Assembly: GCA_041737385.1 (NCBI GenBank) | Contig: JBGSRU010000001.1 | Coordinates: forward strand, 3,539-67,538 | Reading direction: 5' to 3' | DNA: 64,000 bases | Source of the DNA: Candidatus Saccharimonadales bacterium | GTDB lineage: Bacteria; Patescibacteriota; Saccharimonadia; Saccharimonadales; SZUA-47 | In this document: positions 3,580-61,214 of the stretch, piece by piece | How the letters are laid out: the number at the start of each line of letters is the position of its first letter | Numbering within the stretch: the first letter of the stretch is position 1 | Translations under genes and position numbers: made by a program | The notes under the pieces: model-generated | Database searches by the model: none | Told to the model about the DNA's origin: nothing | Seen by the model: the letters and a program-made list of their open reading frames with translations, nothing else

Positions 3580-4299
3580 TTAAACTGGAGTCCTTGCCTG
3601 AGGGGGGTCGTAAGGAACCTCGTTCCGGACTGCAGCATAGTTGATGAAGGCTTGATCGCCCTCACCATAAGAATCTAACCTAATGGTATCAAGGTACAAA
3701 TTATCTGCTGCGATTGACTCCGGCTTTGCTCTATCAAGCACTAGCACCCCACCTGGCTCAAGTGTTCGTGGGGCCTCATCGCTCACAAACCTTGACTCAG
3801 CATCAGGATGTAGTGCGATAGAATACAGTGCGCCAACACTGCCATCTGGTATCGGAAGAACGGTTGCATCACCTATAAAATCGACGTTGTCTCTTACCTG
3901 AGTCGTATCCCAGCTACCGGGTACGGGCTCGGTTTTAAAATCAGCTCCTATAGGTCGCCAAGTGCGAGGTGACGGGGTATCGTCACGATGAGTAATAAAC
4001 TTACGCTCACCAGTTAGGCGGCGTTTATAGGCTGTTCTAATCGTTTCTGGTTGGTAGTGGTTCGAGGTTAGCAGACGCTTATTAATCCCGCCTAATTCTA
4101 AGAGGGAGTCTCTAGGCCTAGGACTGCTAGGCACCGCCCCTACCTCTATAAAAGGTCCTTGAGTGGCATCTATGAGTGTCTCAATAGATGGCCCAACTCT
4201 CATTTTTTCAAACAGCACTCGTGCGGATATTCGTCCAGCTTTAGTTCTGCGTGGCTTGGTTTCTTCTTGATGCTGTAGATGGTTTGGACTATTTGGCAT
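3580..4299 (-). CDS. class I SAM-dependent methyltransferase-like protein (degenerate motif I)
   Basis: C-terminal half reads like a Methyltransf_11 fold: FIGDATVLPIPDGSVGALYSIALH ... LEPGGVLVLD; the N-terminal half is unrecognised. Confidence 0.4.
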   Translation of the reverse strand: MPNSPNHLQHQEETKPRRTKAGRISARVLFEKMRVGPSIETLIDATQGPFIEVGAVPSSPRPRDSLLELGGINKRLLTSNHYQPETIRTAYKRRLTGERKFITHRDDTPSPRTWRPIGADFKTEPVPGSWDTTQVRDNVDFIGDATVLPIPDGSVGALYSIALHPDAESRFVSDEAPRTLEPGGVLVLDRAKPESIAADNLYLDTIRLDSYGEGDQAFINYAAVRNEVPYDPPQARTPV

Positions 4300-4427
4300 T
4301 TCTGTTTCTGACTAACATAAAATATATTAGCATAAAAATTGTAAAAAGTCAATATTTCGCGGGCTATAGAGTCAGATTTTAGAACTATCTGACCAATAAG
4401 GTCAGCTCCATGTCCCCTGACTTTCAT

Positions 4428-4859
4428 TCAGAGGACTAGCTGTAGCTCAGAAACAAGTACATCCATCGCTGTGCTGGTCATCGGTATATACCCCATGCCT
4501 CTAGACTCGTACACTACCCCTGCTAAGTCCAAGAGATGTCTCTCAAGCACCGAATCACCAGCTCTATCGACATTTAGATGGCCTATTCTACATATATCTT
4601 GTGTGCCGCCAGCTGCTAGTTCAATAGTGGTGGGCATACCACCTTCGTCTACAAAACCACTAAAGACCCTGATATTACGCATACTGCCCCATTCACCCCT
4701 AATTTCCCTAGTGTAGGGTCGTTCTTCATCATGATCTACTAAATCTGGATCAATTTCTTCTAAGCCAGGCTCTTGATTGGCTAATGACCTTAGCACAGTC
4801 AGCCTATGCATATTTTCAAAACTAGGTGTCCAGTCACTCATATAAAAAACACTATACAA
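4428..4859 (-). CDS. hypothetical protein
   Basis: 143-aa ORF, no motif recognised. Confidence 0.45.
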   Translation of the reverse strand: MYSVFYMSDWTPSFENMHRLTVLRSLANQEPGLEEIDPDLVDHDEERPYTREIRGEWGSMRNIRVFSGFVDEGGMPTTIELAAGGTQDICRIGHLNVDRAGDSVLERHLLDLAGVVYESRGMGYIPMTSTAMDVLVSELQLVL

Positions 4860-4884
4860 CTTTAGTCATATAGTGTCAATATAC

Positions 4885-4904
4885 TGGCGGGCCCGACCGG
4901 ATTT
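4885..4904 (-). repeat. exact 20-nt copy of the tRNA-Asp 3' end (T-loop/acceptor/CCA)
   Basis: tggcgggcccgaccggattt is identical to 5063-5082, 178 bp away in direct orientation. Confidence 0.85.
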
Positions 4905-5027
4905 CGCTTTGCTTGAACGTCAATAAATTTCTTACATGCTAAGAGGTAGCATGACAAAATTTTTGTCTGTAGACCCGACGCCGCTTTGCGGCTATGCCGG
5001 TTCTTAATCCGGATCGGGTTCGTTAAA

Positions 5028-5062
5028 ATAAAAAAACCACCATAAAGGTGATTTTCTTATTT
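5028..5062 (-). terminator. rho-independent terminator of tRNA-Asp
   Basis: Minus strand: aatcacc-tttat-ggtggtt hairpin followed by a U-run, directly after the tRNA CCA. Confidence 0.5.
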
Positions 5063-5139
5063 TGGCGGGCCCGACCGGATTTGAACCGGCGATCTCCTCC
5101 GTGACAGGGAGGCATGTTAGGCCACTACACCACGAGCCC
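5063..5139 (-). tRNA. tRNA-Asp (GTC)
   Basis: Hand-folded 77-nt cloverleaf: acceptor GGGCUCG/CGGGCCC, anticodon stem CCUCC/GGAGG, loop CUGUCAC, T-loop UUCAAAU, discriminator G, encoded CCA. Confidence 0.9.
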
Positions 5140-5519
5140 GCATTTTTGTTACCAAGGCGTAACAAAAATTTGTCACGTCTTGAAACTTCGATAATATTAC
5201 CATCTTAAGGAGTTAAAAGCAACAATTGAAACCAGATTCTCTGTAGCCAATCAGCATAAAGCAGGAAAACCGATGAAAAATCTAAAATAATGTCGAGTCA
5301 TTTTCGAGGCTTGGCAAAAATCTTTAAATAGTTACTATATTTTTTGCCCGACCAGAGGGAGTTCCGGAGAAACAATGTTATTTTTGATTTATCAATAGTT
5401 GTTATTCTTGCCCGCTGTTGCTTCTTTGCATACTTTCTAGTCAATACAAGAATGTATGTTAGGGCGTGGGACGAAGTAACCCACAATATTTGTGTAGCGA
5501 TGAAGGGCTACAAACTTCA

Positions 5520-6587
5520 CTACTCAGGCAATGATACATAAAGTCGATATGGCTGGCTATCTTTTCGATCATTCAAACTAGCTGCAAGGTCTTGAAGCCT
5601 GAAGATGATGTGCGCACCTCGTGCACCGCTTCCCTTCTTTTCTAGATTCTTTACGATCTCTAGTGCATAGCCGTTTTCGTACGGGATAACATTGATCCCT
5701 GAATATTGTCCCTCCGACAAACGAAGCAATGTATCGACTGTTTGTTGAGAAACATTACGATTAGTCGGATCTACTTCTCCAAAATCACCGCCAGTTTCTT
5801 TTGTTATTTCTTCATCAGAGTATTCTGCAACTATTTCACTAAACTCAGCTCCTGCTTCGAGTTTTGCAAGCGCTTGCTTAGCGCGGTTTTCCGTTGTCGC
5901 GTCTAGTGCTCGAGTAACTTTTTGCACTAACAATTCGTTAGACAGACTTCTCCTGAAATCGCTAATAGACCAGTTCCAATAGTTGCGGAGTACGTCTTCA
6001 AATATTTCCTCGCTACTTCCGAGTCGTTTTTGCTCTCTGGCAATCCGAATTTGCTCATCAATTTCTTCACTCGATACGGTAACGCCGTTTTCTTCAGCAA
6101 GTATTTTGGTATATGCAAAGTTCACGACATCATCGAGAGCGCGCTTTTTATAGCTTGCGAGCTGAGCCTGCCCAGCCTCTGTCTCAAAACTAAGCTGTTG
6201 TTGCGTTTCGTAATAGTGGATGTAATGCCGAAGTTCAAATAAATAATTCTCATATGCAACAAATGTATTCCCAGTGCGGGCGACTGGGAAAGGTAGGACT
6301 TTTGTCACTTGATACATGAAACCGCTTGAAGTTTGACGTCTGTAGAGCAAAAACACTGTAGTAGTAGCGAACACAAGCACTGAAGCAATAGCGAGAGATA
6401 TAGACAGTATGACAATACGATGTTTTGAGTGCTGAAGTGGATATATATATTTTCGAGCACCGGACAGAATCACCTCTCGGTGTTCGGCAACATTATCGTT
6501 CGTAATACGTGGGACAATGCCGTTTTCAGCTTGCTCTTTTTTTAAGCTGCGTTGTTCTCTAAGCGCTTGGATTTTTTTCTTTACCAC
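5520..6587 (-). CDS. membrane-anchored parvulin/SurA-like peptidyl-prolyl isomerase (PpiD/PrsA-like)
   Basis: N-terminal TM helix, long helical chaperone-like region, then a parvulin-like stretch AKLEAGAEFSEIVAEYSDEE..TGGDFGEV. Confidence 0.5.
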   Translation of the reverse strand: MVKKKIQALREQRSLKKEQAENGIVPRITNDNVAEHREVILSGARKYIYPLQHSKHRIVILSISLAIASVLVFATTTVFLLYRRQTSSGFMYQVTKVLPFPVARTGNTFVAYENYLFELRHYIHYYETQQQLSFETEAGQAQLASYKKRALDDVVNFAYTKILAEENGVTVSSEEIDEQIRIAREQKRLGSSEEIFEDVLRNYWNWSISDFRRSLSNELLVQKVTRALDATTENRAKQALAKLEAGAEFSEIVAEYSDEEITKETGGDFGEVDPTNRNVSQQTVDTLLRLSEGQYSGINVIPYENGYALEIVKNLEKKGSGARGAHIIFRLQDLAASLNDRKDSQPYRLYVSLPE

Positions 6588-7135
6588 TATGTTTCCTGTT
6601 CTTGTTGTTGCTGACTTTGCGGAGCTGAACTAGCGTTTGTTGCATATCCACGTGAACGCAATATGCCGAGTAGCTCGTGTTGTATATGTGCAGGTTTATG
6701 GACGTCATGAATACTTAGGTTGCCAACAAAAGTCTGCACTGTTATTGTACCAAAACCAAGCAACGTTTCTTGTATACCTTCCACTTCATAATTAACCATT
6801 TGTATCTGATTGAGTGCAAGGTCTATGACTTTTTTATTGAAAAACCCTTTTTGCGTGCTTTGGATAAACCGCTGATCAGTAACTATATAGACACTGAAAT
6901 ACCAATACACCCATGATGGGAATGCAACTAGTATTCCCAGTAAGAACCCTCCACCTATCCCGAAATAGAAGTAATTCAACTGCGCGTTAGGCAAAAAAGA
7001 TGGAATTGTACCGACAAGTACTGCAATCATAAAATAGATTAGACCTCGACGCATCACAACCGGATGCTTACGAAAGACGAATAACACTTCTTCGTCGTCG
7101 TACTGACCTCTAAATTGTTTGTTGTTTTTTGCCAT
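6587..7135 (-). CDS. membrane protein with bacterial PH-like (YdbS/YdbT-type) domain
   Basis: 182 aa, two TM helices followed by a beta-rich domain; overlaps the downstream gene by 1 nt; assignment is by general resemblance only. Confidence 0.35.
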   Translation of the reverse strand: MAKNNKQFRGQYDDEEVLFVFRKHPVVMRRGLIYFMIAVLVGTIPSFLPNAQLNYFYFGIGGGFLLGILVAFPSWVYWYFSVYIVTDQRFIQSTQKGFFNKKVIDLALNQIQMVNYEVEGIQETLLGFGTITVQTFVGNLSIHDVHKPAHIQHELLGILRSRGYATNASSAPQSQQQQEQET

Positions 7136-7169
7136 ATGCTCTATTTTACGCTAATGGTTTCATAAGTTC

Positions 7170-7194
7170 TAATTGGTGACCTGGGAAGGAGTCG
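7170..7194 (-). repeat. exact 25-nt copy of the tRNA-Arg 3' end plus 5 flanking nt
   Basis: taattggtgacctgggaaggagtcg is identical to 7362-7386, 192 bp away in direct orientation. Confidence 0.85.
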
Positions 7195-7330
7195 CTCACG
7201 CTAGCGCGAGCCCGAAAATACATGACTTTAAAACAAGTTTTCATCAGTATGTTTCCTTGCAAACTGTCACTGGCAGTTTTCACCTTCAACCTATAAAGGT
7301 TTTGACCGACGTCTTCCCGCATCACCTTAT

Positions 7331-7362
7331 AAAAATACCACCTTCAGGGGGTGGCGTTTTTT
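7331..7362. terminator. bidirectional terminator-like hairpin after tRNA-Arg
   Basis: ccacc-ttcaggg-ggtgg stem-loop with T-runs on both strands. Confidence 0.5.
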
Positions 7363-7365
7363 AAT

Positions 7366-7441
7366 TGGTGACCTGGGAAGGAGTCGAACCTTCAACCTTT
7401 TCCTTAGGACGGAACTGCTCTATCCATTGAGCTACCAGGCC
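7366..7441 (-). tRNA. tRNA-Arg (CCT)
   Basis: Hand-folded 76-nt cloverleaf: acceptor GGCCUGG/CCAGGUC, D arm GCUC-AAUGGAUA-GAGC, anticodon loop GUCCUAA, T arm GAAGG-UUCGACU-CCUUC, encoded CCA. Confidence 0.85.
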
Positions 7442-7477
7442 AAAAGCGCCACAGTGTGACGCCCATGATAGAAGCTG

Positions 7478-7936
7478 TTAGTTGTGGTTTTCGTAAACGT
7501 GCATAAACTCTGACTTATCGTAGTCAAACAGTTCGTCAGCATTGAAGAAACGTGCTACTTCAGTCATGCCATTCTCAGTACTATCAGAAGCATGTACAAG
7601 ATTTCTACCCGTGTCCATCGCCATGTCACCGCGAATCGTTCCTGCTTCTGCTTGTCGTGGATTAGTAGCTCCTAAAATAGTACGTATTGAGCTAATACAC
7701 TCCTTGCCCTCAAGCGCCATTGCAATGACGGGAGAACTTTTCATGAAATCTTCAACTCCTTTATAAAATGGTTTATCAGCAATATGTGCATAGTGTGCTT
7801 GCAGCATTGCGCTGTCTAAGCTCATCATTTTCATACCGATAATTTTTAAGCCTTTTTTTTCAAAACGTGTAACAACTTCGCCCGTTAGGCCTCGTTGGAC
7901 TGCGTCTGGTTTTAAAATTATAAGTGTTCGTTCCAT
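7478..7936 (-). CDS. ndk: nucleoside diphosphate kinase
   Basis: MERTLIILKPDAVQRGL..., catalytic-His region NLVHASDS; 152 aa. Confidence 0.9.
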   Translation of the reverse strand: MERTLIILKPDAVQRGLTGEVVTRFEKKGLKIIGMKMMSLDSAMLQAHYAHIADKPFYKGVEDFMKSSPVIAMALEGKECISSIRTILGATNPRQAEAGTIRGDMAMDTGRNLVHASDSTENGMTEVARFFNADELFDYDKSEFMHVYENHN

Positions 7937-8022: not shown

Positions 8023-8955
8023 ATGCGTTACAATGGTCTTATGCTTTTCTCAAAAACAAAAACTGACTTTCTAGAGTATCTAGAGATAGAGCAAGGACGC
8101 TCACAAAAAACTATCCAGAACTACGATCACTATCTTATAAGACTCGTCGATTTTGCCGGAGACATTACCATAGCTGATATTGATCCTGAGCTTATCAGAA
8201 AGTGGCGACTATGGCTCAATAGGCTTGGTACAAACACTTCTGATGAGCTCCAAAAGAATACACAGAACTATCACCTTATTGCACTCAGAAGCTTCCTAAA
8301 GTTTTGTGCTAAGCGCGATATAACCGCAATGCCAGCCGACAAGATCGAGCTTGCGCGTGCAACGCGAAAACAAGTGACGTTTCTCAACCAAGATGAGCTA
8401 GAACGGCTTTTTACATCGCCAAATCTAGATACGGTTCAAGGTGTGCGTGATAGAGCCATTTTAGAGCTTTTATTTTCAAGTGGGCTTCGTGTATCCGAAC
8501 TCGTGGGCTTAAATATCGGTGACATCAACCTGAAAAGAAAAGAATTTATGGTGCGTGGTAAAGGTCAAAAGGATCGCCCAATCTTTATCAGCGACGCGGC
8601 GGCATGGTGGGTGCAACAATATACGGACAAACGCACAGACAACAGCACCCCACTATTCATCCGCTACAGCGGAGCCAAGAAAGTATCGGTGAGTGGGAAT
8701 TATAATCGGCTTACCTCTCGTAGCGTGCAGCGGCTCGTTGCTCGTCATGCACTACTAGCAGGAATAACGAAACATGTCAGTCCTCATACTTTGCGGCATT
8801 CGTTCGCAACTGATCTACTCATGAACGGTGCGGATCTGCGCTCAGTCCAAGCGATGCTGGGACACAGCAATATTTCAACAACACAGATATATACACACGT
8901 GACTGATCCTCATCTCAAAGCAGTCCATCAGAAATTCCACCGCTCAACCGAGTAA
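8023..8955 (+). CDS. tyrosine recombinase, XerC/XerD family
   Basis: N-terminal SAM-like domain; C-terminal HTLRHSFATDLLMNGADLRSVQAMLGHSNISTTQIYTHV with the R..H-R-H..Y catalytic pattern. Confidence 0.85.
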   Translation: MRYNGLMLFSKTKTDFLEYLEIEQGRSQKTIQNYDHYLIRLVDFAGDITIADIDPELIRKWRLWLNRLGTNTSDELQKNTQNYHLIALRSFLKFCAKRDITAMPADKIELARATRKQVTFLNQDELERLFTSPNLDTVQGVRDRAILELLFSSGLRVSELVGLNIGDINLKRKEFMVRGKGQKDRPIFISDAAAWWVQQYTDKRTDNSTPLFIRYSGAKKVSVSGNYNRLTSRSVQRLVARHALLAGITKHVSPHTLRHSFATDLLMNGADLRSVQAMLGHSNISTTQIYTHVTDPHLKAVHQKFHRSTE

Positions 8956-8966
8956 GATTCGTAACC

Positions 8967-10040
8967 TTAAGGATAGACGCAGCTGTCAATAACGCGCGGT
9001 GCCGCAGGAATACTTGCATCGACTGCAAGTAGTTTACAAACACCGTCAAAAGCTTGAAATACTGCTTCAGGTGGACTATTAACTCCGGCAACCGGTATCG
9101 CTACTCTTAGGCGCCTCACAACATCTGTTGCTTTAGCAGTTACATCAATACTTGTCTGTGCTTGTCTAAACTCTACCGTCTCTATGCCACCTGTCGGCGT
9201 AATTTCGGTTGCCGATATCACAAGCCGTGCGCTGTCGTATACTGACCTAAATCTACCAGCGTAAGCATTCGATGAGAATCCTGTAATAGTGATGTCACAA
9301 GGTAGTTCTTGCCCTGCAACACATGACACGCCAATCACTTTACCCGGAGAAGATGCTGGGCTGTAAGCATAAGTAGTCGCTGATCCACCTTGACATGGTG
9401 CGAGATACAGGTAATCCGTTGAGTTTATAAGTGCATCACGGCTCAGCGTCGAAGTATTCGTAATGTCGATGCGTATGAGCGGCACAACGCCTGATCGTGA
9501 TGCAGGAAAGTTCCCTGCATCAGGGCCACAGTTAGGTAGGCTATCAATAGCGTTGTTACCCTGCTCATTCGCCCAACGAAAGCGCATAGTAGAAAAAGGG
9601 TTTCCACTATCTGTTTTTAGTTCAGTCACGCGTGATTCTGAAGTGTTTAAGCTGTAGACGAGTTCTGTTGGCGTTTTGTCGTAAAGCGCGCATGTGTAAG
9701 CTATATTACCATCTGAACTTAAGGAGCCAGCGTCTATTGCTGGATTTGGTTGTCCGTTTGACAATGGATTCTCAACATCACAATCTGTTTTTTCGGCTGG
9801 TAAATTAGGGTTAGCCTGCAACGCGCCGTAAATATCATTGATACCTGATTCTGCTGCATACAAAGCCTGTCGAGACAGTTGCCTGTCTAATGTTTGTCGC
9901 TGTTCTCGCTGCATAATTCTAGTGAAGCCAATAGTGATAAGCGATAGTATGATCATAATAAGCGAAGCAACAATAATCGCAACAAAGCCGGCTTCAGGAC
10001 GAGTATGGTTTTTGGTGTTCTTTGTATTCATAAGCATCAT
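8967..10040 (-). CDS. PilX-like T4P minor component (PilX_N-type hydrophobic N-terminus, no Glu+5)
   Basis: N-terminus RPEAGFVAIIVASLIMIILSLITIGF...RQALYAAESG; last gene of the minor-pilin block. Confidence 0.55.
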   Translation of the reverse strand: MMLMNTKNTKNHTRPEAGFVAIIVASLIMIILSLITIGFTRIMQREQRQTLDRQLSRQALYAAESGINDIYGALQANPNLPAEKTDCDVENPLSNGQPNPAIDAGSLSSDGNIAYTCALYDKTPTELVYSLNTSESRVTELKTDSGNPFSTMRFRWANEQGNNAIDSLPNCGPDAGNFPASRSGVVPLIRIDITNTSTLSRDALINSTDYLYLAPCQGGSATTYAYSPASSPGKVIGVSCVAGQELPCDITITGFSSNAYAGRFRSVYDSARLVISATEITPTGGIETVEFRQAQTSIDVTAKATDVVRRLRVAIPVAGVNSPPEAVFQAFDGVCKLLAVDASIPAAPRVIDSCVYP

Positions 10041-10717
10041 TATAACCTTTTTTGTACGGTGACTAAATATTTTGTTGTTGCGCAGAATTCCGTCCCTACA
10101 AAACTACCCTCGCAAGTTAGCTCAGTTGGAGTTCCAGAAGGCCTTGGACTAAGCAAATCATTGTCGCCGTAGGCAACACCAATAGATACTTGATAGGTCT
10201 GGGTTGTCGCATTGATTAATGATATTTGAAGCTGATAGAGCCGCATATTTTCTGGGAGCAAATCTTTACCGTCACTGCTTGGTCTATCTGCGTTCAAATC
10301 AGCAGATGTTCCACAGCCAGCAAGCTGATCAACCCACAAAGCATGTTTCTTGTGTTTTGCTTCAGGAATTGGGCTTGGGTTACTCTTTACCTGCCTATCT
10401 ATCGCGTATGTATACCGCTTTTGTCCAATGCAGAAATACGCGACGTCATCAGATCCCGAAGGCACTTGTGGTCCCGCAACCTGCGGTACACCAATCTGGA
10501 TAGTCTGATTCGTGAAGCGTATAGCTTCGGCTATTTCATCAACGACTGTTCGCGCAACTTCACGAGTTTTATTCTGTGTGACGCTACGGTAGTACATCTT
10601 TGTAATCTGCAGAACACCGGCGAGACAGATCATCAGCACAAGCGAGAATATAGTCGTTGAAATCATCAACTCTATAATAGTAAAACCTTTTTTATTTGTT
10701 TTCTGAAAACTCCTCAT
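10040..10717 (-). CDS. prepilin-type minor pilin (PilW-like position)
   Basis: Class III signal KKG|FTIIELMISTTIFSLVL with Glu+5. Confidence 0.75.
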   Translation of the reverse strand: MRSFQKTNKKGFTIIELMISTTIFSLVLMICLAGVLQITKMYYRSVTQNKTREVARTVVDEIAEAIRFTNQTIQIGVPQVAGPQVPSGSDDVAYFCIGQKRYTYAIDRQVKSNPSPIPEAKHKKHALWVDQLAGCGTSADLNADRPSSDGKDLLPENMRLYQLQISLINATTQTYQVSIGVAYGDNDLLSPRPSGTPTELTCEGSFVGTEFCATTKYLVTVQKRL

Positions 10718-10719
10718 AA

Positions 10720-12378
10720 TTAGTTTCCTTCAATTTCAATAATATAATAAGCATTTGAATCGAAAACTCCATTCCTGAACCAATCATTCCAGGTCCCAGC
10801 CCCTACCCAGTTCATTGCTGCACAATCTTCACCCGGATTACCTAAATTATAATCATTAGGCTCTTCTACGCCAGGGGTAGTACTATCATCATACCAATTT
10901 GTATAATTTACCGATTCACCAGTCACCCACCTCCAAACACCTTCAGTGTCTTTATCATTTAACCCTAACCATATTCTATTTCCAGCTGCTACTGAGTTTG
11001 AAATAAAGCTATTTTCTTGAGTAGAACTGATAGTGACTAAATGGCCACCACTGCCAATAGCTGCAGAATAAGCCTGGTCACAACTCACAGGTGACGAAGA
11101 AAGATAGTATCTATTATTGTTTGGCGGATTTGCAATCTCTGTTACTCCTGCAGGTAAACTACCTGGAGCAGCGGTACTATACTCTATAACGTATCTATTT
11201 GTATCACTAGCTCCTTGATCATCCCATCTTCCATTGCTAGCAGTAGGCCAGTTCATTAACGCATAATTTTGAGCTCCTAACCAGTTATCTGGCTGACCAG
11301 GATTCCAGTTGGTATAGTTATATGGTTCACCCGTTTCCCACAGCCATTCACCTTCTCTGTTTTGGTCAGTTAGTCCAATCCAAGCTGTTTGAGAAAACTT
11401 AGTAGACACATAGCTATTCTCAGCAGGAGACTCGAAAGTTACTAAATGCCCACCTAAAGCTTCAGCATTTGCTTTCGCTTGAGTCCACGTGACTAACTCA
11501 TCTACAAAATAATAAGAACTGCCGTTAGGTCCAATTCCTAGATACGTACTGTTAGGAATAGTTGGGGCAGTAGTAGCAAATGTTTGCTCAGCGCTAGATA
11601 CTTCCTCTCCAGTTCCTGAATTTCTAACTATCAATGTGTATCTATAGGTCTGGCCGGGTATGAGTGAATCGATAGTTCTAGATAGATTGTTTGATGAGAG
11701 GGGTATGGTTGTAACGACACCGGTACTATCTCTTGTGAGTAGTAGCTGACGCGTAGTAGCTACACCCAATATTGATCCAGTCATTGAGGCAGTAGTAACG
11801 TTTCCAGAAATAGTAATAGATCCTATAGAAAGTGGCACAGGAGTTGGTGGGGGTGTTGGTGGTGCTACGACTAAAGGCACTGCCGAGAAGGCATTGCTGC
11901 CAGCTGGATAGACACGGTAGCCTGTTGTGAGTTCTTTCAGTGGCCCGCCACCGAGTGGATCCCACCTTGCACGAATAGTGAATAGATAATCAGCAGATTT
12001 TGTAACGGACATCGAATACCTTCCATTGACTCCATGGTTACATTCAGCGGGATAATTCTGTGCATCATTTAGCTCGTCTTCAGTGAGTGGAGAAGGAAAC
12101 TCTAAATATTGGGCGTTATCGTTTCTAAAACAAAATGAACTCCCGGCCGGCAGAGCTACTAAAGGATTCGTGGTTAGCGTACTTAGCGCACGTAGTTGCT
12201 CTAATTGTGACTCAGCGACTTTCAGCGCCTCGGTACGTTCCTGTGCGTCTTGACCTATAGCAACACTCCTATTCGCAATACCGAAAGCTGCACCCAGAAC
12301 AAGCCCAATAACAGACATGGCAAGTAGTACTTCAATAATAGTATCACCACGCTGAGACATACGGCGGTAGCTCATCAT
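10720..12378 (-). CDS. modular PilV-like minor pilin with FN3/Ig-like spacer and two C-type lectin domains
   Basis: QRG|DTIIEVLLAMSVIGLVLG pilin N-terminus; PPTPPPTP linker; two CTLD signatures (WIGLTDQNREGEWLWETG..NWNPGQPDN..WDD and IWLGLNDKDTEGVWRWVTG..EEPNDY..GEDCAAMN..WND). Confidence 0.8.
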   Translation of the reverse strand: MMSYRRMSQRGDTIIEVLLAMSVIGLVLGAAFGIANRSVAIGQDAQERTEALKVAESQLEQLRALSTLTTNPLVALPAGSSFCFRNDNAQYLEFPSPLTEDELNDAQNYPAECNHGVNGRYSMSVTKSADYLFTIRARWDPLGGGPLKELTTGYRVYPAGSNAFSAVPLVVAPPTPPPTPVPLSIGSITISGNVTTASMTGSILGVATTRQLLLTRDSTGVVTTIPLSSNNLSRTIDSLIPGQTYRYTLIVRNSGTGEEVSSAEQTFATTAPTIPNSTYLGIGPNGSSYYFVDELVTWTQAKANAEALGGHLVTFESPAENSYVSTKFSQTAWIGLTDQNREGEWLWETGEPYNYTNWNPGQPDNWLGAQNYALMNWPTASNGRWDDQGASDTNRYVIEYSTAAPGSLPAGVTEIANPPNNNRYYLSSSPVSCDQAYSAAIGSGGHLVTISSTQENSFISNSVAAGNRIWLGLNDKDTEGVWRWVTGESVNYTNWYDDSTTPGVEEPNDYNLGNPGEDCAAMNWVGAGTWNDWFRNGVFDSNAYYIIEIEGN

Positions 12379-13232
12379 AGATCACATCCTCTGTCATAAG
12401 TATCAATATCTAGTTTCGTCGCATTGCTGCCAAGTGCACCTAGACTCACAGAAGCTTTCATATTATTCTGATCGATGAGGCACAGTACTATACCTTCAGG
12501 TGTATTCGTATTGATATATCCATTTGTAGCTGATTGTGTAGGATCATCAGTTAGGCTGTTGATTATAGTAACTGCTTGCCCCTCAGTCTGCCCGAGTGAC
12601 GTTCCAACGATTCCTCCAATTTTAATTGACTGTGCATCAGACACACTGACACCACCGAAGTTTGACATGAGGCCAATAGTTCCGAAGTCCGTATTTACCG
12701 ACGGGCTTACTGGGCGAATAACCTTACGCACTCTTAACCCGTATAAAAGCATGTATTCTTCTACTGAGCTGTTAAAGGTCGCGTCACTTGTCATTGATAC
12801 TGCCTTAGGCTTCGCATTTGCTATTGTGCTACTTGGCGTTAGTTTAGAATCTTGATAGCGCTTGCCTGCAAGTGTATAAATTCTAAGTACATCCTGCCGA
12901 CCTTCGGGCTGAAACTGCAATGCTTTACCTACATACAAACAGTCGTCACTAGTTCCAAGCTTTTCGCCACCCGCAGTAACATTGTTTATTTGGACATCAC
13001 CTGCCGTTACCTGGCAAGAAATTGTCTCATTCGTTGGAAAGAAACCTGTAGAAACGTCATTTACAAGATCAGCGATCTTAGCGTCAAACTCACGAACAGA
13101 TTGAGCGAACTGTACTTGTTGCTGCCTACCACTGATAGCAGCCATTGCTGCAACAAAAATAACTGCCGATACGGCAATAAATATTAGCACTTCGAGGATT
13201 GTATAGCCCTTATTGGACTTACGCACTTTCAT
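12375..13232 (-). CDS. prepilin-type minor pilin (FimU/GspH-like position)
   Basis: NKG|YTILEVLIFIAVSAVIFVAAMAAI with Glu+5; 4-nt overlap with the next gene. Confidence 0.7.
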   Translation of the reverse strand: MKVRKSNKGYTILEVLIFIAVSAVIFVAAMAAISGRQQQVQFAQSVREFDAKIADLVNDVSTGFFPTNETISCQVTAGDVQINNVTAGGEKLGTSDDCLYVGKALQFQPEGRQDVLRIYTLAGKRYQDSKLTPSSTIANAKPKAVSMTSDATFNSSVEEYMLLYGLRVRKVIRPVSPSVNTDFGTIGLMSNFGGVSVSDAQSIKIGGIVGTSLGQTEGQAVTIINSLTDDPTQSATNGYINTNTPEGIVLCLIDQNNMKASVSLGALGSNATKLDIDTYDRGCDL

Positions 13233-13275
13233 GCTATCAAGTATATAGCATAAGCTTTATTATTTCACCTCTGTT

Positions 13276-14085
13276 TTATAGATACAAAAACGTTGAAGCG
13301 TACCAATCAACTATTTGACTACCAAACAAGTAGGTGAATATTAGCCCAGCTATGAGAAGTGGCCCAAAAGGCAACTTCATTTTAAGTGTGTTTTTGTCTT
13401 TTATAAGCTTCGGCAGAGAAATAATGACTCCAACGGTAGAAGCGACAAATACAGCCAACCATGCTTCTACTGGTGAACCGAGGAATAACCCCATAACAAC
13501 ACCGAATCGCACATCACCGTACCCGATCCATTTACCTTTTGAAAATGTATACAGCAACCAAAATGTGCCTGCGACCGCTAACACTGCGGTGGCGCTCAAC
13601 AATAGATTTCTTAAGACCGCTTCTGGCGAATTAGCGATAGAGACCACTCTGTAAATACCCGCCACTACTATCAACGGATAGACGAGATTATTCGGCAACA
13701 AGTACCATCGTAGATCATACACCGCTAGCCCCATCATCAACACTACTCCAAGTAGCCACACGGCGAGTAATACGCTGCTAACACTCGAGGCTTCTACCTC
13801 TGCTCTATGCAACCAAGAAAGTAAGAATACGGCTCCAGTGATAAACTCCACAACTGGGTAAGCTATAGTGAGCTTTTTTTTACAGTGACGACAACGTCCA
13901 CGCGCCAGCAACCAGCTCAATAGTGGTACAAGATCCCGCGGCTGCAACACGTGGCCACAATGATCACAGTCAGAACGACCTTTAACCCAGTCTTTGCCGG
14001 CTTTCATGCGATCAGCCATTGCTAAGGCAAAACTACCAAACAGTAACCCAAGTATAAACACGTAACAATTAATAAATACATCCAT
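13276..14085 (-). CDS. pilD: prepilin peptidase / N-methyltransferase (A24 family)
   Basis: Cys-rich CDHCGH..CRHC motif, polytopic membrane protein, GYGDVRF active-site Asp box. Confidence 0.9.
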   Translation of the reverse strand: MDVFINCYVFILGLLFGSFALAMADRMKAGKDWVKGRSDCDHCGHVLQPRDLVPLLSWLLARGRCRHCKKKLTIAYPVVEFITGAVFLLSWLHRAEVEASSVSSVLLAVWLLGVVLMMGLAVYDLRWYLLPNNLVYPLIVVAGIYRVVSIANSPEAVLRNLLLSATAVLAVAGTFWLLYTFSKGKWIGYGDVRFGVVMGLFLGSPVEAWLAVFVASTVGVIISLPKLIKDKNTLKMKLPFGPLLIAGLIFTYLFGSQIVDWYASTFLYL

Positions 14086-14159
14086 ACTGTTTATGGTAGC
14101 AGATAAATTAAAAAGACACCCAACGAATTGAATGTCTTTTTAGAGAATTCTATTTTGAC

Positions 14160-14648
14160 TTAGAGATTATCTATACAGAATATCGCGCCACCTTCTTGCT
14201 GTATCCAAAGTGCAAAGTTCCTTGCACTACCACCCGCAAGCGCCTCACCGTTACAAGAACGTGAATTTCTATAGAACACTTGACCAAGAGCTGGCAAATC
14301 AGCACCTGTGGGAACTCCAGTTGCGGGAGCTGTCGCAACATAAGTTATTGTCATGGGCGAACCTGTTCTAGGATCTCTCCTCTCAACTCCGTTAAAATAT
14401 CTTGTCTGTAAATCAGTGATATTTGTAGCACTTGCTGGTATATTACCGTTGTTATTTCCCGCGTAGTTGTTAATTTCTGTGCTCATACGAGCAACAATGG
14501 CTTGTCTCGCGCTGTTTCGTTGGTTTCTCTGTAGTTGTGGCACTGCAATCAATACAACAACCATAATTAGTCCAGCAATTGCTAGCACAATCATCACTTC
14601 GATGATGGTGAAGCCTTTTTGTCTATTTCTCTTTAATTTCTCTATCAT
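14160..14648 (-). CDS. pilA: major type IV pilin
   Basis: MIEKLKRNRQKG|FTIIEVMIVLAIAGLIMVVV. The ORF track extends to 14726, but the upstream 26 codons look non-native. Alternative start: 14726. Confidence 0.8.
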   Translation of the reverse strand: MIEKLKRNRQKGFTIIEVMIVLAIAGLIMVVVLIAVPQLQRNQRNSARQAIVARMSTEINNYAGNNNGNIPASATNITDLQTRYFNGVERRDPRTGSPMTITYVATAPATGVPTGADLPALGQVFYRNSRSCNGEALAGGSARNFALWIQQEGGAIFCIDNL

Positions 14649-14741
14649 TTGTGGTGCCCTGTTACCCTTTATATTACAATTCTTGATTATACTTATTATC
14701 TTACCGCTGAACAAATTAAAACACAAGCATTATTTTATCAG

Positions 14742-15956
14742 TTACCCTCCGAGGTTCTGGCCTACTAGTCCGTATATTGGGAGTAGAATAGCGCTGACAA
14801 TAGTGATAGCCACAACCCCCAGTACAACCATCAACACCGGCTCTATAATAGTTGAGATGGATTTCACTTGGTTATCTACTTCTTTCTCAAAGTAATCTGC
14901 TGTTTTATCAAGCATCTGTTCGAGCGCACCAGAATCTTCTCCAATCTTGAGCATCTTAGGGACGAGATCAAGGAAGTATTCTTCTGGCTCAAGTGATTCT
15001 GACAGTGCTTTACCTCCTTTGACCTTATCCGTTGCACGACCAATCGCCGCCTCGATATGAACATTTGCGATTGCTCTAGAGGTGACATCTAATACTTGAA
15101 TGAGCGGCACCCCACTTGAGACGAGCGTTGTCCCCGTTCTAGAGAACCGGGCCATATACATCTTACTGAACAGCGGACCGATAGGCCACATTTTAAGCTT
15201 AAGTAAATCTACTACTTGCTTACCTGGTCCTGTTCGTGCCCAGCGCGTGGTAAAGAACGTAATTACCCCAATCGCAATCAGCACAAGCCACCAAAACGAA
15301 ATCACAAAACTAGAAGTTGCAAGCAACATCCTTGTAATAAGTGGCAGCTCTGCACCGGGGATGCCATCATAGAGTTCTTCAACTTGCGGCAACACACTGA
15401 CAAGCATAAACGTCACTACTGCAACCATGACTAATATGACTATCACTGGATATATCATCGCACCGCGTACTTTGCTGGCGAGCTCTGCATCTTTTTCCTG
15501 CTGGTTTGCGATTCGATCGAGTGCAGTATCTAAGGTTCCTGATACTTCTCCAGCTGCAACGAGACTGACAAACACTTGGTCAAATATTTTGGGGTGCGCT
15601 CCTAAGCTCTCAGAGAATGACTTTCCGCCTTCAACACTTGAAATAACTTCGCTTAATACCACCTGCAGTTTCTTATTGTTTGTTTGGCCCAGTACAGATC
15701 GGAGGCTCTGGACCAGCGGAAGTCCAGCGTTAATAAGTGTTGATAATTGTCTCGAAAATATAACTTTATCTTTACCTTTTACACGACCATTAATAAATCC
15801 TAACAACCCTGAAGATTCTTTAGTTTGCACTTCTAAGAGTGCGTAGCCTTGTTGCTCGACTGATTTGGCTACAGACTTTTCGCTGTCTGATTGTATATTG
15901 CCTTTGATCTTTTTGCCGGTTGCTGGATCGCGTGCTGTATAAGAAAATTGCACCAT
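14742..15956 (-). CDS. pilC: T4P platform protein (GspF/PilC family)
   Basis: 404 aa, duplicated T2SSF-type domains, three TM segments, typical ...LLPIYGLVGQN C-terminus. Confidence 0.9.
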   Translation of the reverse strand: MVQFSYTARDPATGKKIKGNIQSDSEKSVAKSVEQQGYALLEVQTKESSGLLGFINGRVKGKDKVIFSRQLSTLINAGLPLVQSLRSVLGQTNNKKLQVVLSEVISSVEGGKSFSESLGAHPKIFDQVFVSLVAAGEVSGTLDTALDRIANQQEKDAELASKVRGAMIYPVIVILVMVAVVTFMLVSVLPQVEELYDGIPGAELPLITRMLLATSSFVISFWWLVLIAIGVITFFTTRWARTGPGKQVVDLLKLKMWPIGPLFSKMYMARFSRTGTTLVSSGVPLIQVLDVTSRAIANVHIEAAIGRATDKVKGGKALSESLEPEEYFLDLVPKMLKIGEDSGALEQMLDKTADYFEKEVDNQVKSISTIIEPVLMVVLGVVAITIVSAILLPIYGLVGQNLGG

Positions 15957-15957
15957 A

Positions 15958-17076
15958 TTACCCCCTCATCAACCTATCTAGTTCTTCGATATCGACTGCA
16001 TAGTTTCTTGCCTCATCATAACTAATCGTGCCTGCGTGGATCATAGAAACGAGCATCTTATCCATTGATTGCATACCGTACTCAGCACCAGTTTGTATCA
16101 CTGCATCCAGTTGATGCGTTTTGCCTTCTCTGATTATGTTTCGAACTGCTGGTGTCGCAATCATGATTTCAGAGGCGACAACACGGCCTCCACCAATTGA
16201 TGGGACAAGTCGCTGTGAACAAATTGCCATCAATATGTTGCTGAGCTGCGAGCGGATTTGCGGTTGTTGGTGCGGAGGAAATACATCGATAATACGATCA
16301 ATACTCTGCGCTGCTGAGTTGGTATGCAGGGTTGCGAAGACTAAGTGCCCCGTCTCAGCGATTGTTATCGCACTTGCGATTGTCTCAAGATCACGCATCT
16401 CACCGATGAGCACTACATCCGGATCTTGACGTAAACTAGAGCGAAGCGCTGCAGAAAATGAGAACGTATCGTAATGCACTTCTCGTTGCACGAGTACTGA
16501 TTTCTTAGATTTATGCGTAAACTCAACTGGATCTTCAATGGTGATGATGTGCATTGCTTTTTCAGTATTAATCTTATCAACAAGCGCAGCAAGCGTTGTT
16601 GATTTACCAGAACCAGTTGGACCTGTAACGAGCACAAGACCTCTTGGGTAGTCTGCGAATTTCTTCACGATTTCTGGAAGTCCAAGTTGCTCAATAGTTA
16701 AAATTTCATTTGGGATTAAACGCAGTGCAGCTGCAAGATTGCCTCTTTCGTGAAATGCATTGACTCGAAAACGACCAAGGTCACCGAAAGCAAAACTGAA
16801 GTCAAACTCTTTATCTTTTAGCAAAATTTGCTTCTGATCATCGTCTAATATAGCAAAAATCAATGCTTCGACTGCTTCTTCTGTCAAAATGTCTGAACCT
16901 GAGACAGCAACAAGTGAACCATCGACACGCAACATCGGTGGTAAGCTCACCTGTAAGTGTAGATCAGATGCTTTCTTCTTCACTACTTCTTCTAAGAGGA
17001 GCTCTATTCTTGGTTGTACTGATTGTGCTGCCACCCTGGTTACTTCCTTTTCTTTAAGATGAGCCTTCGGCTGCAA
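15958..17076 (-). CDS. pilT: T4P retraction ATPase
   Basis: Walker A GPTGSGKSTT, Asp/His boxes, PilT-type AIRNIIREGK signature (PAVRNIIREGKTHQ). Confidence 0.9.
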   Translation of the reverse strand: MQPKAHLKEKEVTRVAAQSVQPRIELLLEEVVKKKASDLHLQVSLPPMLRVDGSLVAVSGSDILTEEAVEALIFAILDDDQKQILLKDKEFDFSFAFGDLGRFRVNAFHERGNLAAALRLIPNEILTIEQLGLPEIVKKFADYPRGLVLVTGPTGSGKSTTLAALVDKINTEKAMHIITIEDPVEFTHKSKKSVLVQREVHYDTFSFSAALRSSLRQDPDVVLIGEMRDLETIASAITIAETGHLVFATLHTNSAAQSIDRIIDVFPPHQQPQIRSQLSNILMAICSQRLVPSIGGGRVVASEIMIATPAVRNIIREGKTHQLDAVIQTGAEYGMQSMDKMLVSMIHAGTISYDEARNYAVDIEELDRLMRG

Positions 17077-18835
17077 CTCTGTTAACTTCTGAAACGGTTG
17101 TCATGCCGCTTAATGCTTTTAAATATCCATCCTGACGCATCGTGATCATTCCTTCAGCTTGTGCTGCTCTCTGAATTTCCGAACTCGTCGATCGTTTCAA
17201 TATAAGATCTTGAATCGCATCCGACACTTCAAAAACCTCGTAAAGGCCCATTCTCCCCTTGTAGCCTTCTGGCGTATCAGGGCTAGACTTGCCTTTGAAT
17301 AAAGTATAAGCGTTTTGACCGTCTAGAGGCAAGTTAGAATATCCTAACTCACGGGCAACCTTTGCTACTTCTTCAGGTTTTTTAGGTAAAAGCGCACCAA
17401 GTGACGTCACGACAGCATCAGTTTCAGCCTTACTCGACTTATAGGCTTCTTTCTCTGCGACATTTCTTCTCACCAAACGCTGTCCAATAACGGTGTGGAC
17501 TGTACTGGCAATCAAGAAAGGCTCAATCCCCATATCGAGTAGACGAGGCAGAATACCGGCAGCGGAGTTGGTGTGTAGCGTGCTGAACACGAGGTGACCG
17601 GTTAACGCGGCCTGGACCGCAAGTGTCGCTGTTTCTTTGTCACGAATCTCACCAACCATAACAACGTCTGGATCTTGACGTAGAATAGACCTCAAACCTG
17701 AAGCAAATGTCAGCCCAACTTCAGCATTAACCTGTATCTGATTAATGCCGCTCATCTTATACTCAACGGGATCTTCAAGCGTGACAATGTTTATCTCGTC
17801 GCTCTTTATTTCCTGCAGAAGCGCATAAAGAGATGTAGATTTACCAGAACCAGTCGGTCCACTCGTCAATATCATACCGTTTGATTGCAGAAGCCCTTTA
17901 CGAATTGTACGTAGCGCCCTCCCAACATAACCCATATCTTCCAAATTCAAGGTGGTACCGCTCTTATCAAGAAGACGTATGACGACTTGCTCACCCCAAA
18001 CAACTGGCGATATAGCAATACGTAGATCGATCGACGACTCACCGGCTTTAATCGAGAACTGTCCATCTTGTGGAATACGGTGTTCATCAATCTTTAGGTT
18101 CGCTAGAATTTTTATACGAGATATAAGCGGTGCTTCTATAGACTTCGGTAGTGCCATAATTTCTCGTAAAACACCATCAACTCTTGCGCGAATCTTAAGC
18201 TGCGTTTCATTGGGTTCAATGTGGATATCACTCGCTTTATTCTTCGCAGCGTATTCTAGAATGCTTGAGAGTGCTTTACTAATCGGCGAATCTTGCGTAA
18301 TAGTTTTTACTGCTACTACTTGTTTGGCTTCGGCTTCGTCAATTTGCGCTTTGATCTGAGAGTCTAGCACGCTGCCCACATCATGGCCAATATCTGATTT
18401 ATACTGAGATAGTACGTTACGTATACCTTCTTCACTGGCTGTATATACTTTAAGTGGGCGCCCAATCTTGTTGCTCAGAAAATCAACTGCTTGTACATTA
18501 TCGGCGTCAAGCATTGCAACAACAAGCCGTGAATTCATCTCTCCAAGAGGTACCGCCATGTATCGTTCGGCTATTTCTTGTGGAAGCATAGATAATATTT
18601 TTGGATCAATATGTGCGGTCGTCAGATTAACATACGGCATTTTCGTAACATGCGCTATCGTTTTAGTCAGCGCTTCGTTCGTCAAGAATCCTTCAGATAT
18701 AAGTATCGAAAACAGCGGTGTGGTTTTTTGCTTAGCCTCTTCTTGTATCTCACGAAACTTCTCAGGAGTAAGTAGCCCTTGCTCAACAATAGCTTTCTCA
18801 ACCTGCTTCTGCACGACAGAAGACATGATACTCAT
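17054..18835 (-). CDS. pilB: T4P extension ATPase (GspE/PilB family)
   Basis: 593 aa, N-terminal GSPII domain, Walker A GPTGSGKSTS, ...GRMGLYEV...; overlaps the pilT start by 23 nt. Confidence 0.9.
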   Translation of the reverse strand: MSIMSSVVQKQVEKAIVEQGLLTPEKFREIQEEAKQKTTPLFSILISEGFLTNEALTKTIAHVTKMPYVNLTTAHIDPKILSMLPQEIAERYMAVPLGEMNSRLVVAMLDADNVQAVDFLSNKIGRPLKVYTASEEGIRNVLSQYKSDIGHDVGSVLDSQIKAQIDEAEAKQVVAVKTITQDSPISKALSSILEYAAKNKASDIHIEPNETQLKIRARVDGVLREIMALPKSIEAPLISRIKILANLKIDEHRIPQDGQFSIKAGESSIDLRIAISPVVWGEQVVIRLLDKSGTTLNLEDMGYVGRALRTIRKGLLQSNGMILTSGPTGSGKSTSLYALLQEIKSDEINIVTLEDPVEYKMSGINQIQVNAEVGLTFASGLRSILRQDPDVVMVGEIRDKETATLAVQAALTGHLVFSTLHTNSAAGILPRLLDMGIEPFLIASTVHTVIGQRLVRRNVAEKEAYKSSKAETDAVVTSLGALLPKKPEEVAKVARELGYSNLPLDGQNAYTLFKGKSSPDTPEGYKGRMGLYEVFEVSDAIQDLILKRSTSSEIQRAAQAEGMITMRQDGYLKALSGMTTVSEVNRVAAEGSS

Positions 18836-18856
18836 GAGCGTTCAAGCTCCATACAG

Positions 18857-19132
18857 CTATATGCCCTCAAATACAGATTCACCGTTTGATTGTCCACCAA
18901 ATGGATTACTATTCGGATCAGTTCCAACATCGATATTCTGTGCTGGATTAATTGCATCAGCGCTAAAATATACCTGAGTAGGTCGATCAAAAGTCGTTGC
19001 AATAGGCTCTACAACTTCGACGCTCTGTGCACGGTCTGAAGGTGTTGAAAAGAATATTCCCGACAAAATAATCGAAATCACACCACTAACTATTGCGACA
19101 ACCACAAGGATACCTATGTCTTTTGCCTTCAT
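18857..19132 (-). CDS. small membrane-anchored protein of the pilMNO block (function unknown)
   Basis: 91 aa, single N-terminal TM helix; abuts the PilO-like gene without a gap. Confidence 0.4.
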   Translation of the reverse strand: MKAKDIGILVVVAIVSGVISIILSGIFFSTPSDRAQSVEVVEPIATTFDRPTQVYFSADAINPAQNIDVGTDPNSNPFGGQSNGESVFEGI

Positions 19133-20487: not shown

Positions 20488-20492
20488 ACGGT

Positions 20493-61188: not shown

Positions 61189-61214
61189 AATTTCAATATA
61201 TCACGCATTTTGAT

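Follow-up and report, generated by a model that had tools for sequence, protein, structure and literature searches.

In the 64,000-nt stretch of Candidatus Saccharimonadales DNA analyzed here (contig JBGSRU010000001.1; the whole stretch is referred to as the window), the gene for tRNA-Asp(GTC) is followed by a 178-bp segment (4885-5062, minus strand) which, judged by comparison with a related genome, is a discrete insertion bounded by direct repeats of the tRNA 3' end. We propose with moderate confidence that this segment is a gene-less, non-autonomous integrative mini-cassette, which would be site-specific for the 3' end of tRNA-Asp and mobilized in trans. Saccharibacteria (TM7) and other ultra-small bacteria of the candidate phyla radiation (CPR) have genomes of about 1 Mb with single-copy tRNA genes, and we know of few mobile elements described in CPR bacteria. 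The window is chromosome of such an ultra-small CPR bacterium (Saccharibacteria) and not phage; a BLAST search of positions 4400-7600 against a phage collection returned tRNA-sized matches only. Over 2801 nt across the element behind tRNA-Asp and a sibling behind tRNA-Arg, the window agrees at 100% identity with another public assembly (Logan SRR28170464), and the repeat architecture is therefore not an assembly artifact. An exact-protein look-up for a near-identical strain led to the identical sequence (SRR28170464) and to no empty site.

The tRNA-Asp gene itself is intact with CCA encoded (5063-5139, minus strand; ARAGORN, and 61.6 bits to Rfam RF00005). The repeat, AAATCCGGTCGGGCCCGCCA, comprises the last four bases of the T-loop, the T-stem 3' strand, the acceptor 3' strand, the discriminator base and CCA. 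Its first, attL-like copy (5063-5082, minus strand) lies within the functional tRNA, from the 3' part of the T-loop to CCA, and its second, attR-like copy lies at 4885-4904 (minus strand). The two are identical at 20/20 nt, in direct orientation and spaced 178 nt from start to start. A preliminary description of this DNA had reported the exact repetition, which we confirmed; chance predicts no match. When the 18-mer ATCCGGTCGGGCCCGCCA was searched with up to 3 mismatches, only the two repeat copies were found in 64 kb and nothing in 100 shuffles.

We compared the window with 68 related loci (L001-L040 and L042-L069), gathered as best matches of the locus encoding a peptidyl-prolyl isomerase (PPIase); the closest relatives were Candidatus Saccharibacteria genomes and metagenomes. 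One of them, L003, provides an empty site. The 3' half of its tRNA-Asp (aligned positions 40-77) is identical to that of the window, and its CCA is directly followed by GATATTGACACCATAT..GTTGTATGGTGTTTTT, the hairpin that in the window comes after the second repeat copy (CCA followed by GATATTGACACCATATAGTAAAAGTTGTATGGTGTTTTTATTATG in L003, and by GTATATTGACACTATATGACTAAAGTTGTATAGTGTTTTTTATATG at the distal copy of the window). A three-way alignment showed a clean 178-bp gap in L003. Because L003 joins the identical tRNA tail straight to the distal flank of the window, we read the segment as a discrete insertion; by the same comparison the distal copy is the displaced original tail, still on its native flank, and the proximal copy, which now completes the functional tRNA, arrived with the insert together with the terminator and body described below. 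A second empty and filled pair was found in L039, where tRNA-Asp abuts a terminator, and L019, where an extra 166-bp unit with an 18-bp repeat precedes that same terminator. The combination of an intact tRNA with a displaced 3' fragment and the precise presence or absence of the insert (L003; L039 versus L019) are both traits of tRNA-targeting integrative elements; an element-encoded integrase, also a trait of these, was not found. The native hairpin that follows tRNA-Asp directly in the empty-site genome lies at 4848-4879 (minus strand) and ends in a T-run. Because it shows a compensatory change between the window and L003 (ACACTATA/TATAGTGT to ACACCATA/TATGGTGT) and scores 11/12 as a sigma-70-like promoter (TTGACA-17-TATAGT) directed toward the next gene, it is probably both the native terminator of the tRNA and the promoter of that gene.

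The insert is built of modules in the order that the preliminary description had given correctly: tRNA, terminator hairpin, multi-hairpin segment and repeat copy. The insert-borne terminator (5026-5062, minus strand; seen in sequence and fold) starts directly after CCA and consists of an A-run, CACC-UUUAU-GGUG and a U-run; its symmetry makes it potentially bidirectional. It is followed by a degenerate inverted copy of the 3' half of tRNA-Asp, GCCGGTTCTTAATCCGGATCGGGTTCGTTA (4996-5025, plus strand), which covers the T arm and the acceptor 3' strand with a local alignment score of 25, equaled by 1/2000 shuffles. The 10-nt complement to the repeat noted earlier at 5009-5018 is real and belongs to this larger copy, which on the minus strand pairs with the distal repeat copy in the predicted folds. 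The tRNA tail, terminator and inverted copy together form one long imperfect palindrome, in which the mismatches are 6 transitions and one 1-nt indel. The remaining hairpin-rich body (4905-4995, minus strand; supported by its fold and by an ortholog in L002) contains a degenerate copy of the T-stem 5' strand, GTCGGGTC, at 4972-4979, followed by TACAG. It also contains GCCGC-AAA-GCGGC at 4980-4992 and further hairpins, and ends in ...AAGCG just before the repeat. All the hairpins named previously (GCCGC-AAA-GCGGC, GACAAAA/UUUUGUC and AUGCUA/UAGCAU) were present in the minimum free energy (MFE) fold.

No open reading frame (ORF) was found in the 158-bp interior of the insert and no promoter-like site within either of the two window inserts, behind tRNA-Asp and tRNA-Arg. 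Searching Rfam 15 at permissive thresholds with this region of the window and six related loci, we obtained matches to the tRNAs alone, with the inserts at noise. The insert does not carry terminal inverted repeats of the kind found in miniature inverted-repeat transposable elements, its ends AAATAAG... and ...AAAGCG being non-inverted. Nor is there a short target duplication of fixed length as in those elements; the repeats of the units described here are 18-25 nt of tRNA sequence. At 5346-5369 (minus strand), some 200 nt upstream of the tRNA-Asp gene, CTCCGGAACTCCCTCTGGTCGGGC followed by an A-run resembles a decayed T arm and acceptor 3' strand of tRNA-Asp and may be the remnant of an older, interrupted upstream copy. 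Near it, about 310 nt of the window are missing from L002.

We then scanned the 150 tRNA genes of the window and the 68 loci for tail repeats. The preliminary description would have dropped the idea of a common mechanism had the arrangement not recurred elsewhere; it does recur, with 20 downstream units at 17/150 tRNA genes of related Saccharibacteria (Asp 14, Arg 4, Thr 1 and Gly 1). All but one of the units (19/20) measure 134-192 bp, the last being 39 bp. Wherever the terminal 16 nt of a tRNA recurred outside the gene, the orientation was direct. The repeat stops precisely at CCA, with the sole exception of the window tRNA-Arg repeat that runs 4 nt further, and starts at canonical position 59 in 9/15 units whose repeat is undegraded and at 55-60 in 5/6 of the others. 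A terminator hairpin opens every (class-A) unit, and behind it most units carry the 3' part of the tRNA as a degenerate inverted copy that begins with TGG. Many units further hold a direct copy of tRNA positions ~44-58, then a structured insert of 50-90 nt, then the exact tail. From this order a unit looks like a partial tRNA 3' half that is interrupted at the T-loop and preceded by its own inverted image; in the predicted folds, the inverted and direct parts would pair into an extended stem from which the insert protrudes where the T-loop would be. The ortholog of the window tRNA-Asp unit lies at L002 6017-6198 (nhmmer E 5e-20) and can be aligned end to end.

The sibling locus in the window is tRNA-Arg(CCT) (7366-7441, minus strand; ARAGORN and Rfam), followed by a cassette at 7170-7365 (minus strand) recognized from its repeat, its fold and a covariance model, R1, that we built in the present work for its structured domain. 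The duplication of its tail, also reported earlier, is real: 25 nt at 7170-7194 are repeated at 7362-7386, reaching 4 nt past CCA. Besides the repeat copy 7170-7194, this cassette contains a terminator (7337-7355), a weak inverted copy, an exact 11-nt direct copy of tRNA positions 44-54, AGGTTGAAGGT, and what we call the type-1 domain (~7185-7287). In L002 the AGGTTGAAGGT-type copy covaries with the T stem of the tRNA (GAAGG/CCTTC to GTAGG/CCTAC). The fold of the Arg insert is more stable than that of shuffles (z -4.27). Its domain of about 90 nt consists of GGU/GARAnnnGCC-loop-GGCnnnUYGCAAGG, followed first by a long hairpin and next by a GC hairpin that ends in GUGRGC. R1 found 8 copies in 516 kb, in the window (7185-7287, minus strand), L002 (3121-3223 and 5399-5496), L019 (7891-7992), L032 (2108-2213 and 6664-6753), L048 (2567-2669) and L068 (2616-2718). 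All sit solely at the T-loop position of copies of tRNA-Arg, tRNA-Asp or tRNA-Gly, and always in the orientation of the tRNA. In their alignment 91% of the cells are paired and 19 pairs show double changes, compared with 10 +/- 1.9 in shuffles (0/500) and 4-9 in slid controls. The domain matched nothing in Rfam, and we regard it as a candidate new family of structured nucleic acids. Elsewhere, behind the tRNA-Arg of L042 (2625-2880), one full unit of 157 bp is tandemly repeated in truncated form: its terminator and first ~55 nt recur behind it and then break off into the host flank. The body of this unit is a simple long hairpin unrelated to the domain of the window Arg cassette, although the two genomes are closely related (75% PPIase identity).

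A common mechanism behind the two window loci, as first suggested, is very likely on the grounds that one modular layout is shared and recurs across the scanned genes. The two more specific hints in its favor did not hold up. The GCG at the junction of the copy is seen in both window elements but is coincidental and not a feature of the family, since relatives read CAC/ATCC, GCT/ATCC, GAT/ATCC, ACC/ATCC, ATT/TCC and CTC/CTC. Nor are the two inter-repeat segments homologous or alike in fold: within the window R1 matches 7185-7287 alone, nhmmer detected no similarity between the Asp and Arg inserts, and a second covariance model, R2, built in the present work from TACAGG-type Asp cassettes, matches neither insert (no match to the window Asp insert at E <= 10). 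The similarity of the window Asp unit to the R2 units is modular, with short strings in common (TACAG after the T-stem copy and AAGCGAAATCCG before the tail).

The type-1 domain also occurs on the other side of tRNA genes. In L068 and L048 it interrupts a near-full-length copy of tRNA-Arg upstream of the intact gene, and the intact gene abuts the flank that in the window comes after the distal repeat. Such interrupted upstream copies were found for tRNA-Asp in L002 (5353-5526), L019, L035 and L039, for tRNA-Gly in L019 and L032, and for tRNA-Arg in L048 and L068. They are near-full-length, lie 33-50 nt before the intact gene, carry a structured T-loop insert of 80-120 nt and are truncated on the 3' side. 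In some of them the anticodon loop is altered and the anticodon stem still paired (for example, TTCC/GGAA to CTCC/GGAG in L068). We infer that a single crossover of a host tRNA with a circular molecule that bears a tRNA segment broken by an insert could give both layouts, downstream or upstream, depending on the side of the insert on which it falls. This account fails for the short 'a' segments and is therefore partial at best. Readings of the T-loop inserts as introns, either with a bulge-helix-bulge (archaeal-type) or of group I/II, were inspected by eye and rejected: no boundary pairing or splice consensus was seen, the inserts are too small and the interrupted copies are truncated.

Units occur singly, in tandem (L035, L019, L060 and L042) or interleaved with units made of a promoter and a gene, and the order of two cassette types in L019 is the reverse of that in L035, with orthologous outer flanks in both. 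In L002 the ortholog of the window unit sits behind a promoter-plus-ORF unit bounded by tail copies at 5658-5675 and 6017-6025. Similarly, the region 5880-7000 of L019 holds a further unit at 6873-6999 (R2, 108 bits) behind a gene for 258 aa, bounded by decayed tail copies. Overall, an array of cassettes separated by partial tRNA copies is found beside a strain-variable region. The first gene behind the conserved hairpin differs between genomes (window variable region 3580-4841, minus strand; L002 5720-5986; L003 5614-6144). In the window this region encodes ORFs of 137, 75 and 239 aa, the 137-aa ORF (4428-4841, minus strand; no family match in profile searches) being the first behind tRNA-Asp. 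For the variable-region genes of the window, L002 and L003, there was no homolog among the other loci and no match in Pfam, NCBIfam or PHROGs (Pfam only for the 75-aa ORF). The site beside tRNA-Asp is a hypervariable spot. Other TACAGG-type units were observed at least 1 kb from a tRNA, at L035 6637-6782 (R2, 29 bits) and L032 5536-5628 (R2, 33 bits), the latter although no tRNA-Asp was detected in the L032 stretch.

The window Asp segment from behind the terminator to CCA has an MFE fold with z = -4.75 relative to dinucleotide shuffles. In 10/13 units the tRNA-sense strand gives a more stable fold than its complement, with more G.U pairs, and the TACAGG-type Asp units (L019, L026, L035 and L060) share several invariant U.G pairs that are A.C mismatches on the other strand. 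Between the window unit and its L002 ortholog, the terminators differ in sequence and both pair (6 compensatory pairs), and one body hairpin is compensated. In the window Asp unit itself, the outer stem has four A.C on the sense and G.U on the antisense strand, and both strands fold about equally well.

The mini-cassette interpretation that we favor would work as follows. A circular or folded cassette would recombine with the attB-like tail of the tRNA (~59-76) through its own identical segment, by means of a recombinase supplied in trans and encoded outside the cassette. New cassettes would enter beside the tRNA and displace older ones outward, and the inverted and direct tRNA-derived modules, forming the long hairpin with the body bulging at the T-loop, would serve as the recombination module. 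The predicted products of excision are an empty junction, GCCCGCCA joined to GTATATTGACAC, and a circle junction made of CAAGCAAAGCG, AAATCCGGTCGGGCCCGCCA and AAATAAGAAAATCACC.

Several results weigh against this interpretation. No integrase, transposase or reverse transcriptase was found in or beside the cassette, no larger gene-carrying version with an integrase was found in the 68 loci, and motif scans of IMG/VR viral contigs yielded nothing convincing and no attP-bearing candidate. The sole tyrosine recombinase of the window (8023-8955, plus strand) is a Xer-type protein, and the only transposase is of the DDE/rve type (59750-60715, plus strand), 55 kb away. At 158-178 bp, the unit is below the size of a typical arm-bearing attP, and neither excision, nor a circular form, nor recombination itself was observed. 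Finally, the compensated pairing and the invariant U.G pairs on the tRNA-sense strand point to a single-stranded form (RNA or single-stranded DNA, ssDNA), since double-stranded protein-binding sites would not yield such conserved pairing; a classical attP does not explain it.

The search for a mobilizer was otherwise negative. Pfam searches of 50 of the 64 window ORFs of at least 80 aa detected no reverse transcriptase, phage-type integrase or Y1 transposase, and no integrase was seen beside units in the 68 loci. In IMG/VR, 12 pattern matches to the type-1 motif were treated as chance (at most 15 bits with R1, in tRNA-free surroundings), and a scan for the TACAGG-type junction gave 0 matches. 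The Xer-type gene is divergent and lies beside the gene for nucleoside diphosphate kinase (NDK) and tRNA-Arg. Its product passes the cut-off of the archaeal XerA model, is below those of XerC and XerD, and scores 139.6 against a cut-off of 265 for the integron-integrase subfamily. Because it is syntenic and 65-87% identical in the 53/68 loci where tblastn found the gene, more than the neighboring PPIase (39-77%), it is presumably a housekeeping chromosome-dimer resolvase. This conservation and synteny, together with the lack of any paralog in the window or loci, led us to reject a role as cassette-specific integrase. As CTX-phage integration illustrates, folded single strands can serve as substrates of Xer enzymes, and the protein therefore stays a candidate catalyst; nothing in our data links it specifically to the units. 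The DDE transposase (rve_3/rve integrase core) lies in a patch of low G+C content (60001-62000, 0.369) and is probably part of an insertion sequence unrelated to the tRNA cassettes.

We give a minor share of our confidence to a tentative alternative, namely that the units, along with the tRNA copies of relatives that are interrupted in the T-loop, may belong to an undescribed class of mobile element that targets the tRNA from T-loop to CCA through a folded ssDNA or RNA module of target-derived sense and antisense segments. Such a module would possibly take the place of a tRNA-specific integrase and a double-stranded attP, and retargeting from Asp to Arg, Thr or Gly by segment swap is conceivable by analogy with attC folding or bridge-RNA-like guidance, likewise as a tentative idea. 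The stable folds (z -4.75 and -4.27), the better folding of the sense strand in 10/13 units, the invariant U.G pairs of the TACAGG-type family and the covariation of the Arg-type domain (19 double-change pairs versus 10 +/- 1.9, 0/500) would also be expected of a structured small RNA made in the direction of the tRNA, for example by read-through of the first terminator, and acting as a processing substrate, decoy or regulator. The second terminator after the distal copy at the Asp locus would suit this as well. We nevertheless consider it unlikely, since the unit stands behind a strong terminator with no internal promoter-like site in either window insert, the outer stem of the window Asp unit pairs better on the antisense strand, no Rfam family matches, and presence or absence, tandem copies and reshuffled order are traits of insertions and not of conserved RNA genes. 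Its corollary, that the 5' part pairs with the tRNA-identical 3' tail and that the identity of this tail is held by selection or gene conversion, is unlikely to the same degree. An RNA could be compatible with mobility, as the functional form of the element itself.

Others among the explanations that we weighed would make the segment a passive trace. A tRNA tail repeated in direct orientation is what integration by an integrase classically leaves behind, and an inert scar, the immobile and functionless remnant of a larger prophage or genomic island that lost its interior and integrase, would account for a gene-less segment in a strain-variable region behind tRNA-Asp and for degenerate tail copies deeper in arrays and upstream. 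Random deletion, however, should leave broad sizes and arbitrary content, yet 19/20 units fall within 134-192 bp with one module order; unit types occur in tandem and in swapped order with pairings preserved by compensatory changes, and no full-size relative was found in the 68 loci or in viral contigs. A scar of this kind seems unlikely to us. Duplication-inversion-duplication layouts are typical of template switching, and such a layout is present here, as is the long imperfect palindrome with its 6 transitions and one 1-nt indel. A by-product of repair or recombination, whether by template switching at the terminator and T-arm palindromes or by homology-facilitated illegitimate recombination during natural transformation with the conserved tRNA as anchor, would need no dedicated mobile element and could further draw on the type IV pilus system of the window (putatively serving DNA uptake), on the inversion of the tRNA plus cassette unit in some relatives, and on a 39-bp trailer-plus-tail junction in L002 that looks illegitimate. 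It leaves unexplained the same body families behind different tRNA species in distant genomes, the universal leading terminator and the uniform repeat boundaries, and we judge it improbable. Those boundaries (at CCA in all units but one, and at position 59 in 9/15) and the TGG-initiated inverted copy after the terminator in most units, which resembles a primer-binding site, are what tRNA-primed reverse transcription might leave, the tail copy then being the 3'-terminal 18-20 nt of the mature tRNA up to A58, as far as a reverse transcriptase would read if that base were modified. This retro-type origin is highly improbable: no reverse transcriptase was found among the 50 ORFs scanned in the window, the CCA is genome-encoded and so does not speak for RNA as the source, the Arg repeat of the window extends 4 nt past CCA, and the inverted copies are too degenerate at their CCA end to prime.

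Insertion flanked by att sites at a tRNA gene is a known phenomenon, and the mini-cassettes that we propose share part of it. An element that integrates at a tRNA gene comes to be flanked by partial tRNAs, is displaced outward by those that arrive after it and adds to a variability that peaks beside the tRNA (Hackl et al., bioRxiv 10.1101/2020.12.28.424599; for Islander-type islands, PMC4383910). The units here resemble Islander islands and the tycheposons of Prochlorococcus in that an intact tRNA and a displaced partial copy bound the insert as direct repeats, that the crossover segment lies in the part from T-loop to 3' end, and that successive insertions form arrays in a variable region. 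Islands and tycheposons span kilobases and bring their own tRNA-specific tyrosine or serine recombinase, whereas the units here are gene-less, of 134-192 bp and with no linked integrase found; unlike them, they also hold inverted and direct tRNA-derived modules that form a long hairpin.

Cis-mobilizable elements (CIMEs), known from the streptococcal literature, are att-flanked remnants of integrative and conjugative or integrative and mobilizable elements without recombination genes. The units are like CIMEs in having attL/attR-like repeats, no recombination genes and a presumed mobilization in trans. CIMEs, however, derive from identifiable parents and are usually far larger, while here no parent was found in the 68 loci or by motif scans of IMG/VR and the architecture is conserved in its own right. 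In integrons, attC is an imperfect palindrome of inverse core and core, and cassettes are arrayed at a single site through the GTTRRRY core and IntI. Here too, small units are arrayed at one site in an order that varies between genomes, some of them very short or with one gene, which may or may not have a promoter, and the paired inverted and direct tail copies, the conservation of structure over sequence and the strand bias recall attC, as a resemblance only. In contrast to integrons, the units attach at a tRNA gene, with an 18-25-nt tRNA tail as core in place of GTTRRRY, and no integrase of the IntI type was found.

Repetitive extragenic palindromic (REP) sequences and their hairpin-forming doublets (REPINs), mobilized by REP-associated tyrosine transposases (RAYTs), and the Rickettsia palindromic elements are dispersed genome-wide with a family-conserved sequence. 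As with REP/REPIN, we see non-coding hairpin units of 100-150 nt with strand-specific pairing after genes or terminators; unlike the units here, REP/REPIN and Rickettsia palindromic elements duplicate no tRNA tail and restore no gene. Palindrome-associated transposable elements (PATEs) derived from IS200/IS605 are small and structured, without terminal inverted repeats or target duplication. They share with the units strand-specific hairpins and insertion 3' of a short sequence (here TTCG/TTCA of the T-loop in partial copies), and differ in that here an 18-25-nt repeat bounds the unit and no Y1 transposase was found among the 50 window ORFs scanned. A literature search on T-loop insertions, miniature tRNA-targeting elements and att sites of Saccharibacteria returned nothing specific. 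For a gene-less unit of 134-192 bp that combines inverted and direct modules taken from its target with conserved single-strand pairing and structured domains specific to the T-loop, we know of no precedent, and to our knowledge the cassettes are far smaller than any known integrative element.

Taken together, the data suggest that tRNA genes of Saccharibacteria are docking sites where tiny non-coding and single-gene cassettes accumulate and reshuffle; if so, these episymbionts would have a simple means of varying their gene content from strain to strain. The cassettes would then represent a minimal substrate for some recombinase, or a sign of structure-guided insertion. In practice, annotation and island-finding tools can be misled by the partial-tRNA matches and tRNA pseudogenes to which the units give rise.

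The genes flanking the tRNA loci encode NDK, a bacterial PH-domain (bPH) protein, the SurA-like PPIase, a Na/Ca exchanger, the Xer-type recombinase and the type IV pilus cluster. Relative to the conserved NDK-bPH-PPIase genes, tRNA-Arg is reversed in L002, L003, L004, L006, L009 and others, and tRNA-Asp in L001, L003, L004, L005 and others. In L002 the entire unit of tRNA-Arg plus cassette is inverted between the NDK and bPH genes. The pilus cluster of the window (8967-21530, minus strand) encodes PilX_N and N-methyl pilins, a 552-aa protein with C-type lectin domains, a prepilin peptidase, T2SSF, two T2SSE ATPases and PilM, and is followed by very large ORFs (855, 1203 and 883 aa) without Pfam match.

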